IMG/VR virus record: IMGVR_UViG_2821091796_000001
Coordinates: 64,001 to 118,187 of that record
From: a virus
Lineage: Duplodnaviria > Heunggongvirae > Uroviricota > Caudoviricetes
Strand: one strand, 5' to 3'
Length of the DNA stretch: 54,187 nt
The notes under the pieces are model-generated. The model made no database searches and was not told the origin of the DNA. It worked only from the letters and a program-made list of their open reading frames with translations. The position numbers were made by a program, and so were the translations under genes. Positions 16,009-52,306 of the stretch are shown here, piece by piece. Position 1 is the first letter of the stretch. Every line of letters starts with the position of its first letter.

Positions 16009-16341
16009 ATGCGCGAACAATTCAACAAACAACAGGTTTTCGACCTTCGAGACAAGCAGGCTGCACGTCCTGTGCGTCAGAAGCTCGGGTTTCCTGGCAA
16101 GAGCAAAGAGAAGCGCTGGTCCCATCAGGATGATCTGGATCGCCTCGTTGGTAAAGAAATCAGCGTTGCGATAATCCTGTCAGGTGTCGAAAAGTATGTG
16201 AAGGGCACGCTACTTGCTGCCGATCAATACTTCATCAAGCTATCACTTCCATTGGTGGATTTGATGACTGGCTCTCCGGTCGATAATTCTATTCGTGTAT
16301 ATAGTAAATCAATTATTATTTACTTTTCTGAGGTTAAGTAA
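16009..16341 (+). CDS. Sm/LSm-fold Hfq-like RNA-binding protein
   Basis: HQDDL..., VKGTLLAADQYFIKL and RVYSKSII align by eye with Hfq LQDPFL, LQGQIESFDQFVILL and MVYKHAI. Confidence 0.6.
   Translation: MREQFNKQQVFDLRDKQAARPVRQKLGFPGKSKEKRWSHQDDLDRLVGKEISVAIILSGVEKYVKGTLLAADQYFIKLSLPLVDLMTGSPVDNSIRVYSKSIIIYFSEVK
16304..16323. promoter_or_regulatory. Palindromic operator copy 6 (inside 3' end of Hfq-like CDS)
   Basis: GTAAATCAATTATTATTTAC, one mismatch, 18 nt before helicase start. Confidence 0.6.
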
Positions 16342-18795: not shown

Positions 18796-18815
18796 ATCAA
18801 TCATTATTGACTTAC
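18796..18815. promoter_or_regulatory. Palindromic operator copy 7
   Basis: ATCAATCATTATTGACTTAC. Confidence 0.85.
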
Positions 18816-18840
18816 TTTCCTATTCAGAACTTGCTATAAA
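18814..18840 (+). promoter_or_regulatory. Phage-type promoter (upstream of WGR gene)
   Basis: ACTTTCC-N12-GCTATAAA. Confidence 0.55.
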
Positions 18841-18871
18841 CGAAACAACACAGAACACAGAGAGAAACAGA

Positions 18872-21841: not shown

Positions 21842-21867
21842 GCAGTCCCTCTTTTGCTTGCTATAAT
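21842..21867 (+). promoter_or_regulatory. Phage-type promoter of putative sRNA
   Basis: GCAGTCC-N11-GCTATAAT with no downstream credible CDS. Confidence 0.72.
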
Positions 21868-21873
21868 AGAATG

Positions 21874-21966
21874 CAGAACTTGAATCCCTGGTGACTTGGG
21901 TAAAGTTACACCTCTCTGTGTCCAAGGGCCGCTTCTCCTCCCCTTACAAGCGGCCCTTTTTTTTTT
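21874..21966 (+). ncRNA. Putative trans-acting sRNA (~93 nt) with pyrimidine-rich loops
   Basis: Own promoter; predicted hairpins 21877-21907, 21908-21921 (ACAC-CUCUCU-GUGU) and terminator 21925-21957 with CUCCUCCCCUUAC loop, then a U run; 5' end estimated. Confidence 0.68.
21925..21966 (+). terminator. Rho-independent terminator
   Basis: AGGGCCGCTT/AAGCGGCCCT 10-bp stem followed by a poly-T run. Confidence 0.85.
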
Positions 21967-21968
21967 CA

Positions 21969-23069
21969 TCAATGAGCTTTCTTGCGGCGCATGTATCTGA
22001 TGACTTCGGCCAGATCTATCTGCCCGCTTTCAATCATCCGCACATAATTTCGGAAGTATCCGCCCGGATTCTTGATTTTCATTTCACCAGACTGATCCGC
22101 GGAATAAATTTCAAGCACGACGAAGAACGCGGCCGACGCTCGCAATGGGCCAATTTTCTCCATAGCTTCGTCCCAAGCGCTCCGGTGAATCCCAATTGCA
22201 CCTCGCAAGCCCGCGGCAGCCGATAGAAGTTCTCTATCGTTGCCCACAGATTCAACGTATCCAAAGGCGTCCGGGCATGCAGCGCACAAATCAGGCAAGT
22301 TGATTTCGCTTTCATTATCTCTTTGCCGTTTGTTACAAGACTGGTCAGGAGAATCTTTGTTGTTCTCAATGAGACGGCTGTTTTTGCCGCCACAGGCGGC
22401 ATTATATCTATCTTCAAGGGTAGTTTTCAGACTTTGCCACAGAGAAAGCACAGGCTCTACGGGCTGCGACGACGTTCTACGCGGCGAAAGCGCTACTAGG
22501 CGCTCATACTCGGCTTGCAGGTCGCTCGTGTCGATACTCATCTCCAATGCACTGAGAGCATACAGCGCTTCCTGAGCAGCTCTCCTGCAGATCGTAATCT
22601 GATCAAACAAGGCCATGCGAGCCCGCTGGAACTCGCGGATAGCATCCGTGCGCGCCTGCAGTTCATCTTTCCGCGCCAAGAGAGGGGAGAGATTGAAGCC
22701 ATAAGCATCGAGAATCTGACCCTGCTTGGAGCGCACAGCAAATCGCTTTCCGTTGGCACTATCGCGCGCAAGGATCACACCGGCCCGGATCAACTCCCCA
22801 ATCGCATATCGGATAGCGCGGTCGGAGAGTCCCGTTCGATCGGATAGGAACTCGTTGGAAGGCCAGACCAGGTAAAGACCGTTGATAGGCTCGCGAAAGA
22901 ACCCGACGAGCTGTGATAGAATGGACCTGGCGGATGGGCGCAGTCCCAGGGCAATTGCTGCCAGATGCGCGCTCTCGAATAGATCCTTCTTGGTGCCGGC
23001 ATCTTCCGGCACATAGCTGTCCATTGCCGGCGCTATACGGCGCCAGCCCGAATGTCCCTCGGTTCTCAA
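21969..23069 (-). CDS. repC: Plasmid replication initiator RepC (repABC type)
   Basis: VWPSNEFL, DSANGKRF, YGFNLSPL and IKNPGGYFR motifs; TTG start with GAGGAG RBS. Confidence 0.9.
   Translation of the reverse strand: MRTEGHSGWRRIAPAMDSYVPEDAGTKKDLFESAHLAAIALGLRPSARSILSQLVGFFREPINGLYLVWPSNEFLSDRTGLSDRAIRYAIGELIRAGVILARDSANGKRFAVRSKQGQILDAYGFNLSPLLARKDELQARTDAIREFQRARMALFDQITICRRAAQEALYALSALEMSIDTSDLQAEYERLVALSPRRTSSQPVEPVLSLWQSLKTTLEDRYNAACGGKNSRLIENNKDSPDQSCNKRQRDNESEINLPDLCAACPDAFGYVESVGNDRELLSAAAGLRGAIGIHRSAWDEAMEKIGPLRASAAFFVVLEIYSADQSGEMKIKNPGGYFRNYVRMIESGQIDLAEVIRYMRRKKAH
22290..22430. other. Candidate oriV inside repC
   Basis: A/T-richer mid-gene stretch with GANTC (GAATC 22351-22355); repABC origins are known to lie within repC; boundaries approximate. 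Confidence 0.35.
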
Positions 23070-23154: not shown

Positions 23155-23220
23155 GTTCGGGTGGTTCGCCACTTTCTATTTCAAAGCCTCGAAGGTTCCA
23201 GCCTTCGGGGCTTTTGCTTT
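23155..23220 (+). ncRNA. repC countertranscribed RNA (ctRNA / incA-like)
   Basis: Antisense to repC leader; GTGG-TTCG-CCAC hairpin plus GCCTCGAAGG/CCTTCGGGGC terminator and T tract. Confidence 0.8.
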
Positions 23221-25402: not shown

Positions 25403-25425
25403 ATCATAAGGACAGAGAGAACAGG

Positions 25426-27733: not shown

Positions 27734-27805
27734 TATCCTAATCAAAAGTCAGTAGTTATTGAAGACAACACAGCGCAAAGCGCACAGAGACGGAGAGAGT
27801 TTCAC

Positions 27806-40223: not shown

Positions 40224-40249
40224 GCACTCCTGATTGAACGCGCTATAAA
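40224..40249 (+). promoter_or_regulatory. Phage-type promoter flanked by two operators
   Basis: GCACTCC-N11-GCTATAAA. Confidence 0.75.
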
Positions 40250-40268
40250 TAAATCATCATTGATTGAT
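40249..40268. promoter_or_regulatory. Palindromic operator copy 14
   Basis: ATAAATCATCATTGATTGAT. Confidence 0.85.
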
Positions 40269-40288
40269 GACACACAGAGAGAAAGACT

Positions 40289-49189: not shown

Positions 49190-49215
49190 GTAGCCCTGAA
49201 TGATTCTGCTATAAG
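49190..49215 (+). promoter_or_regulatory. Phage-type promoter
   Basis: GTAGCCC-N11-GCTATAAG, overlaps operator. Confidence 0.75.
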
Positions 49216-49234
49216 TAAATCAGCAATGATTGAT
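49215..49234. promoter_or_regulatory. Palindromic operator copy 17
   Basis: GTAAATCAGCAATGATTGAT. Confidence 0.78.
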
Positions 49235-49251
49235 TATACTCGGGAGACAGA

Positions 49252-52243: not shown

Positions 52244-52270
52244 GCATTCCGATAATGCTCGCGTTATAAA
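52244..52270 (+). promoter_or_regulatory. Phage-type promoter
   Basis: GCATTCC-N12-GTTATAAA, operator follows directly. Confidence 0.65.
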
Positions 52271-52290
52271 GTAAGTCAATAATGATTGAT
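52271..52290. promoter_or_regulatory. Palindromic operator copy 19
   Basis: GTAAGTCAATAATGATTGAT. Confidence 0.87.
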
Positions 52291-52306
52291 ACAGAGAGAG
52301 ACACAG

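Follow-up and report, generated by a model that had tools for sequence, protein, structure and literature searches.

A small RNA gene beside repC of a Rhizobium-type phage-plasmid, predicted to pair with the leaders of early operons

What is encoded in the 179-nt gap that separates the stop codon of an ATP-dependent ligase gene (21789) from that of repC (21969-21971, minus strand) in a phage-plasmid of the RHEph10 type? A preliminary description had placed a trans-acting small RNA there, with a seed antisense to the leaders of multiple phage genes. The stretch of DNA analysed here, referred to as the window (54,187 nucleotides), is the right-hand, last 54 kb of the 118,187-bp contig C16 within a 5.97-Mb assembly. 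As judged from its sequence, C16 (GC content 52.8%, versus 56-57% in the large host contigs) is a 118-kb RepC-type phage-plasmid of a Rhizobium-type bacterium, similar to RHEph10 and pLM21S1. Its gene content and order match those of the Rhizobium phages RHEph10, RHph_N1_10, Y2_11, X66 and B1VFA and of the plasmid-prophage pLM21S1: primase, WGR, two small genes, the ATP-dependent ligase, the convergent RepC, RHH and an XRE repressor are followed by VWA/CobT-like, AAA+/CobS-like, sigma factor and DnaE genes and, farther along, by sbcCD and rIIA/B. In the literature found on this group, no small RNA has been reported.

The RNA gene and its relatives

A phage-type promoter, a non-coding stretch of about 93 nt and a strong terminator, the three elements named in the preliminary description for 21842-21966, are all present in the sequence (Table 1). 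The promoter belongs to a class that recurs on the contig, where 15 GCTATAA boxes were found on the sense strand compared to 7.2 expected. At 13 of these 15 sites a C-rich element ending in CC (e.g. GCAGCCC or CACTCC) is located 11-12 nt upstream of the box, and this shared two-part layout indicates that the promoter of the RNA represents a real phage class. Further examples are found in the window at 18800-18840, 40240-40270, 49207-49235 and 52260-52290. Many promoters of the class are followed by a palindromic operator, GTAAATCA-N3-5-TGATTTAC, with about 37 such sites in the 118-kb contig; in the relatives, the layout of promoter and operator is kept while the operator sequences differ. The promoter of the RNA has no repressor operator downstream, whereas the predicted targets described below are all positioned behind operator-bearing promoters.

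Table 1. Coordinates of the RNA gene, its candidate protein partner and its predicted targets, and seeds and leader motifs of related RNAs
Element	Feature	Position	Strand	Description
Window	Phage-type promoter	21842..21867	+	C-rich element GCAGTCC, 11-nt spacer, GCTATAAT box
Window	Predicted transcript, ~93 nt	21874..21966	+	5' end inferred from the -10 box; 3' end is the U tail
Window	Hairpin 1, conserved conformation	21890..21912	+	Stem GGUG(A)/(UA)CACC, loop CUUGGGUAAAG
Window	Seed	21912..21925	+	C/U(G)-rich linker CUCUCUGUGUCCAA between hairpin 1 and terminator
Window	Intrinsic terminator	21924..21966	+	11-bp stem, 13-nt loop CUCCUCCCCUUAC, U10 tail
Window	repC	21969-23069	minus	Pfam RP-C match
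Window	Sm/Hfq-fold protein gene	16009..16341	+	110 aa; candidate RNA partner
Window	Predicted target 1, WGR-ligase operon leader	18855..18864	+	ACACAGAGAG, 10 nt complementary, -17 to -8 from ATG 18872
Window	Predicted target 2, leader of first sbcD-operon gene (40289)	40272..40281	+	ACACAGAGAG, 10 nt complementary
Window	Predicted target 3, rIIA leader	52288..52298	+	GATACAGAGAG, 11 bp with one G-U
Window	Predicted target 4, VWA (CobT-like) gene leader	25412..25419	+	ACAGAGAG, 8 nt complementary
Window	Predicted target 5, AAA+ (CobS-like) gene leader	27783..27799	+	CACAGAGA (27783-27790, 8 nt), then GGAGAGAG
Viral contigs and relatives	Type B RNA loci	L011:9414-9489, L013, L014, L197:5262-5340, L218, L220-L225, L230
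Window	Seed and shared leader motif			CUCUCUGUGUCC; ACACAGAGAG
Shinella	Seed and shared leader motif			UCUUUCUCUCUCG; GAGAGAGAA(A)
G402	Seed and shared leader motif			UUUCUCUCUCAACA; GAGAGAGAA(A)
G403	Seed and shared leader motif			ACUUUCUCUCUCA; GAGAGAGAA(A)
G401	Seed and shared leader motif			CUUUCUUGUGUCUCUCUC; AGAGACACAA
G405 (variant RNA)	Seed			UUUCCUCUUGUGUGGUGUGA; three different seed parts, one per leader

The terminator consists of a stem (21924-21958) with its loop at 21935-21947 and a run of ten U residues to 21966, the end of which lies 2 nt from the repC stop codon. No credible open reading frame was found in the region of about 93 nt (21874-21966), nor was a tRNA, and at gathering score no Rfam family matched in the window. 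In E-value mode Rfam returned SorY, mmgR and ar14 only, all with E > 0.1, at chance level and driven by the terminator. A small peptide on either strand was rejected as a candidate product, as the frames vary among the homologues and the minus-strand starts are not conserved; an indel between the RNA of the window and its homologue in Shinella excludes a common reading frame. The sequence evidence is thus that of an independent transcription unit, as expected for a trans-acting small RNA, with a promoter, a Rho-independent terminator with U tail and no open reading frame. At its very start (21872-21890, plus strand), the predicted RNA is identical over 19 nt to the centre of a palindromic host repeat of about 130 nt, for which BLAST gave at least 138 matches across the genome of the host (e.g. 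C1:68945-68963; the 19-mer has E = 0.002). The homologues of the RNA do not share this stretch.

The minimum free energy fold of the RNA has -27.1 kcal/mol (z -2.5) and displays CUCUCU, which belongs to the sequence CTCTCTGTGTC at 21912-21922, as the loop of a 4-bp ACAC/GUGU hairpin, in agreement with the small hairpin loop of the preliminary description. Constraining the fold to the conserved hairpin 1 yields -25.0 kcal/mol, so that this conformation is only 2 kcal/mol above the minimum, and leaves the whole seed single-stranded. CUCUCU in the window is unpaired with a probability of about 0.99, and the corresponding linker is unpaired with a probability of at least 0.9 in all homologous RNAs.

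Such homologues occur at the same locus of a 117-kb plasmid of Shinella zoogloeoides (NZ_CP132310.1), which is of the same phage-plasmid type, and of three metagenomic phages from IMG/VR (G401, G402 and G403) that were obtained from about 40 viral contigs by a profile scan with six ligases. The three are complete or nearly complete phages and carry the RNA type of the window, referred to as type A. The Shinella locus comprises a GCTATAA box, the block CCCTGGTG-CTTGGGT, a hairpin, a C/U-rich linker and a terminator, and the box, the hairpin loop, the position of the seed and the terminator are conserved in all four homologues. Together with the RNA of the window, the hairpin 1 loops follow the consensus YUGGGUYAAR, while the stems vary (GGUGA/UACACC, GGUGC/GCACC, UCGCC/GGCGA, GUUGC/GCAAC and CGAC/GUCG). 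RNAalifold predicted two hairpins separated by a single-stranded linker, with double compensatory changes in 9 of the 16 consensus pairs; the terminator stem covaries as well. As the homologues at the same locus keep box, hairpin, linker and terminator, 21842-21966 very probably is a gene for a conserved, structured small RNA.

Two other segments of the RNA were considered as pairing regions. Complements of the conserved hairpin loop, which served as a negative control, are not enriched in any of the genomes, and the loop was rejected as a seed. The terminator loop CUCCUCCCCUUAC (21935-21947) is C/U-rich and has the appearance of an anti-Shine-Dalgarno sequence; it was rejected as a second seed because the loops of all homologues are short (3-7 nt; 5 nt in Shinella) and unrelated, and it is probably not a conserved seed.

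A second type of RNA (type B) was found at the same locus in RHEph10, N1_10, Y2_11, the Pararhizobium plasmid p5 and several viral contigs. It is characterised by a CTATTCTATAA box, a different hairpin, a linker UCUCCUUUCCAAC that mimics the 3' tail of 16S rRNA, and a covarying terminator. X66, B1VFA, V1VFA-S and pLM21S1 lack the RNA, and other open reading frames occupy its position. Additional searches yielded no further members: a scan of the viral contigs with a single ligase protein gave no matches, a 15-base pattern scan of genome and viral contigs gave chance matches only, all of which lacked the flanking features, stricter patterns revealed nothing new in metagenome and viral collections, and a DNA search of 400 genomes of the family retrieved one distant element (G370) without the RNA.

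Complementarity between seed and early leaders

The complements of the seed at the WGR, 40289, rIIA, VWA and AAA+ leaders proved correct in position and pairing length on re-reading, and they overlap or adjoin the ribosome-binding region as previously proposed. At the first four targets they end 5-8 nt before the start codon; the AAA+ gene is the exception, with its complement 16-23 nt upstream of the start and a second GGAGAGAG behind it. A leader to the left of the window (position 23118 of C16), in which a GCTATAA box and ACAGAGAG precede the ATG of a 90-aa open reading frame 7 nt downstream, is a candidate for a sixth target. With one mismatch at most, the 11-mer complement matches five times in comparison to 0.77 times expected, a number not reached in any of 100 shuffles; four of the matches are in sense orientation and located in leaders, and the one on the other strand is the RNA itself. 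In the whole contig, ACAGAGAG occurs eight times in sense and twice in antisense orientation (1.8 expected per strand), and five of the sense copies reside in leaders. Complements of at least 8 nt are present in 5 of the 57 leaders of the window, compared to 0.35 for composition-matched shuffled seeds (P = 0.0004, i.e. 0.04% of the trials); the same control gave P < 0.0002 for Shinella. The duplexes predicted for the five leaders of the window have -17 to -18 kcal/mol and cover about -20 to -7, whereas pairing of the 16S tail with the same leaders reaches -6 to -10 kcal/mol. An accessible seed thus faces short, imperfect complements at the ribosome-binding sites of several unlinked mRNAs, as is typical of trans-acting small RNAs. 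In the host chromosome complements are depleted (25 versus about 123 expected) and only about four are near starts, which suggests that the RNA is directed at the phage.

The preliminary description had staked its proposal in part on covariation of seed and leaders in related elements, and such covariation was found: the five related type A genomes possess different seeds that are matched by their own leader motifs (Table 1). The pairing cores are CUCUCUGUGU with ACACAGAGAG in the window, UUUCUCUCUC with GAGAGAGAA(A) in Shinella, G402 and G403, and UUGUGUCUCU with AGAGACACAA in G401. Not counting the RNA itself, complements of at least 10 nt number 2/0, 5/0, 5/1, 7/1 and 2/0 (sense/antisense) in the five genomes, in sum 21 to 2 with 0.3-1.3 expected per genome, and almost all are located in sense-strand leaders; as the leaders within a phage share the motif they are not independent targets, and the counts effectively represent one match of seed and motif per genome. 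G405 has three such complements in sense and one in antisense orientation, and two type B genomes have none in either. Sense matches of at least 9 nt are mostly located just 5' of start codons, behind phage promoters or operators, and the leader matches recur on the same orthologues, namely WGR(-ligase), VWA, AAA+, the first gene of the sbcD operon and rIIA. For the WGR leader, each of the four seed classes pairs over exactly 10 nt with its own leader and over 5-9 nt with those of the other classes. Among the 24 possible assignments the true one ranks first (P = 0.041, the lowest value that four seed classes, a small sample from related phages, can yield); with 10 distinct RNAs the value is P = 0.002. 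Type B alone displays no cognate specificity (P = 0.5).

The resemblance of all seeds to the 3' tail of 16S rRNA implies that part of the complementarity to purine-rich ribosome-binding sites comes free. Cross-reactivity is predicted to be substantial: the Shinella seed also matches five leaders of the window over at least 8 nt, and cognate and non-cognate duplexes are only 1-3 kcal/mol apart. However, the motif is not just a variant of the Shine-Dalgarno sequence, since several leaders of G401 have a separate GGAG 3' of it. Parts of the seed without anti-Shine-Dalgarno character are mirrored in the cognate leaders, GUGU by ACAC in the window and UUGUGU by ACACAA in G401. The covariation of seeds and leaders among related phages, observed for four seed classes, supports a trans-acting RNA with multiple targets, and a single RNA probably controls many early genes.

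Mode of action and a candidate protein partner

We propose that the RNA acts in trans against ribosome-binding sites and represses early operons, a model to which, as a whole, we assign a probability of about 0.6. Transcription would start at the phage-type promoter free of operators and stop at the strong intrinsic terminator, giving rise to an RNA with a 5' hairpin and its conserved loop, the single-stranded seed CUCUCUGUGUCC, and the terminator hairpin with U tail. The seed would pair with ACACAGAGAG or close variants of it, located on the ribosome-binding site or immediately 5' of it, in the first-gene leaders of at least five early operons under repressor control (WGR-ligase, VWA, AAA+/sigma/DnaE, sbcD and rIIA). 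Most likely, pairing would block the access of ribosomes and lower early gene expression. Competition with the 30S subunit is the most economical reading, as the predicted duplexes outdo that of the 16S tail and cover about -20 to -7. The RNA might thereby provide a second, post-transcriptional layer above the repressor, or an early shut-off. Since the targets are behind operators and the promoter of the RNA has none, it would fit that the RNA is produced while the repressor is active and mops up leaky early transcripts; a shut-off of early genes in lytic growth would fit equally well.

Either host Hfq or a protein of the phage itself may serve as a helper. A 110-aa product with a basic N-terminal extension is encoded directly upstream of the DnaB-like helicase gene, and homologues of its gene are found at the corresponding position of the Shinella element and of the metagenomic contigs L200 and L201. 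The preliminary description had called the gene Hfq-like, and profile, structural model and fold matches agree on an Sm/Hfq fold. The product has no Pfam match of its own; of its roughly 30 distant homologues, a minority match such models individually (LSM in 12 and Hfq in 7 of 31), and the profile of the family matches Hfq structures (best E 6e-4). A model from the single sequence was poor and its matches were meaningless; the alignment-based model used instead (pLDDT 85.5) has the Sm topology of a helix and five strands, with Hfq and Sm/LSm proteins as best fold matches (target-normalised TM-scores 0.6-0.78). All five type A genomes carry the gene, and no copy was detected in G405, G406 and N1_10; in the genomes with type B RNA, no Sm-like gene was found. 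Given so few genomes, related to one another at that, this co-occurrence is a lead, not a proof of partnership. Among the papers listed by a full-text search, none contained the phrase 'phage-encoded Hfq'.

The resemblance of the linkers to the 16S tail gives rise to the alternative that survives best, though we regard it as unlikely: the RNA would be real and its complementarity to leaders a by-product, since a linker of this kind would fit purine-rich ribosome-binding sites in general, while the true role would be elsewhere, on host mRNAs or in cis as an antisense to repC read-through. The seeds do resemble the 16S end of the host (CACCUCCUUUCU), the type B RNAs match generic AAGGAGA sites only, and one host leader (C13) has an 11-nt complement. 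In every homologue the terminator abuts the repC stop, and since no U run comes after the hairpin when it is read on the repC strand, a transcript reading through from repC would be complementary to the RNA over its full length. However, a by-product would not be expected to show the exact mirroring of GUGU and UUGUGU in the cognate leaders, a G401 motif separate from the Shine-Dalgarno sequence, or the depletion of complements in the host, and some relatives have repC without the RNA. A role in replication control through repC read-through is ranked secondary.

Slightly less probable still is that the pairing is real and its outcome is not repression, i.e. that early mRNAs are stabilised or activated, or that the RNA titrates or partners the Sm-like protein, which would bind GA-repeat leaders. 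Gram-positive Hfq binds AG repeats on its distal face. The distribution of the Sm/Hfq-fold gene (five of five genomes with type A RNA, none of three others) would fit such a role, as would the conserved hairpin loop, which without enriched complements has the appearance of a protein-binding site. The position of the duplexes at -20 to -7 or at the start codon in most targets is, however, the geometry of translational repression.

That the motif serves a phage protein as a binding site on the DNA of early promoters, with a fortuitous inverted copy in the gap between ligase and repC and no RNA pairing, appears very improbable: the motif is close to promoters and operators, and in a few cases (G401 28331 and 46960) is at the predicted transcription start, but its spacing from the start codon varies far less than that from the -10 box, and in every phage the inverted copy occupies the same site, where it has a promoter of its own and is single-stranded, flanked by a covarying hairpin and a terminator. 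Similarly remote is the absence of any separate gene, the region being the 3' UTR and terminator of the ligase operon with chance complementarity. Transcripts from the WGR promoter must indeed end at the terminator of the RNA (and would hence carry both target and seed), and the upstream promoter element, weak by the standards of sigma-70, escaped a generic sigma-70 consensus scan. Diverged phages have, however, conserved the box, the hairpin and the position of the seed, the match of seed and leaders recurs with different sequences, and an RNA derived from a 3' UTR would carry the same seed anyway.

Beyond the proposed repression of early operons, it might be speculated that the RNA and the Sm/Hfq-fold protein form a dedicated control module in the whole group of alphaproteobacterial phage-plasmids, in which one seed holds down all repressor-controlled early operons by a common leader tag, and in which seed and tag drift together so that related phages fall into specificity groups defined by the RNA, resembling heteroimmunity. 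This joint proposal is a tentative one, and the odds are rather against it. Most phage regulatory RNAs that have been described target a single phage operon or genes of the host. In the present case, one seed appears to address tagged early operons for replication, recombination, sigma factor and rII functions; at least four versions of seed and tag have arisen by co-evolution, and a phage-borne Sm/Hfq-fold protein accompanies the RNA. Should this control of early operons be confirmed, it would constitute an RNA counterpart to protein translational repressors such as T4 RegA, a second layer of immunity in phage-plasmids, a natural set of orthogonal seed-leader pairs, and the first regulatory element to be assigned in the RHEph10/pLM21S1 group, which has been little studied.

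Comparison with known regulatory RNAs

The preliminary description had likened the RNA to C4 of P1, and this likeness holds as a concept, not as membership. In P1 and P7, which are phage-plasmids as well, the small RNA C4 pairs with the ribosome-binding region of a phage mRNA. It does so by short exposed complementary stretches, the differences of which set the specificity between related phages (PMC12197685). C4 is, however, cut from the very transcript it controls and acts on the single operon icd/ant, whereas the RNA of the window is a separate unit downstream of the ligase gene with its own promoter, at least five unlinked predicted targets in five other operons and no antirepressor; the Rfam model of C4 was not matched at gathering score and is absent from the weak matches. 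The nearest described trans-acting small RNA in a phage of this kind is VpdS of the vibriophage VP882, a Hfq-binding RNA of a plasmid-like phage that alters the levels of phage and host mRNAs (PMC12197685). VpdS, which was compared along with other phage trans-acting Hfq-bound RNAs such as PreS, affects largely host RNAs, involves competition for Hfq and has no sequence relation to the RNA described here. In contrast, the predicted regulon of the latter consists of the phage's own early operons with a common leader motif, and the phage carries an Sm-fold protein of its own.

In Rhizobiales, the RNAs of the ar14/NfeR1 'cuckoo' family and AbcR1/2 have C/U-rich unpaired seeds which pair with the purine-rich ribosome-binding sites of many mRNAs. 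The RNA of the window shares the C/U-rich unpaired seed, but its seed contains GUGU without anti-Shine-Dalgarno character and is phage-specific. Members of ar14 are recognised by CCUCCUCCC motifs in conserved loops; the RNA reached only 16.4 bits against a gathering score of 58.8, and did so by its C/U-rich terminator loop, which is absent from all homologues. T4 RegA is a protein that binds to the ribosome-binding regions of many early mRNAs, including that of rIIB, and shuts off their translation. It may be regarded as a functional analogue, with the difference that the specificity determinant in the window is an RNA. Taken as a class, the RNA is best likened to multi-target small RNAs of the Hfq type, and it is a member of neither C4, ar14/cuckoo, AbcR nor the repABC ctRNAs. 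With the latter it has in common that a small RNA is located beside repC in a Rhizobiales replicon. The ctRNAs, however, are encoded upstream of repC and are antisense to its leader, whereas the RNA described here lies 3' of repC in convergent orientation. Unmatched by Rfam at gathering score, a strong 14-bp hairpin followed by a T-rich stretch (23183-23214, plus strand) occurs upstream of repC and antisense to its leader, at the very position where a repC ctRNA would be expected.
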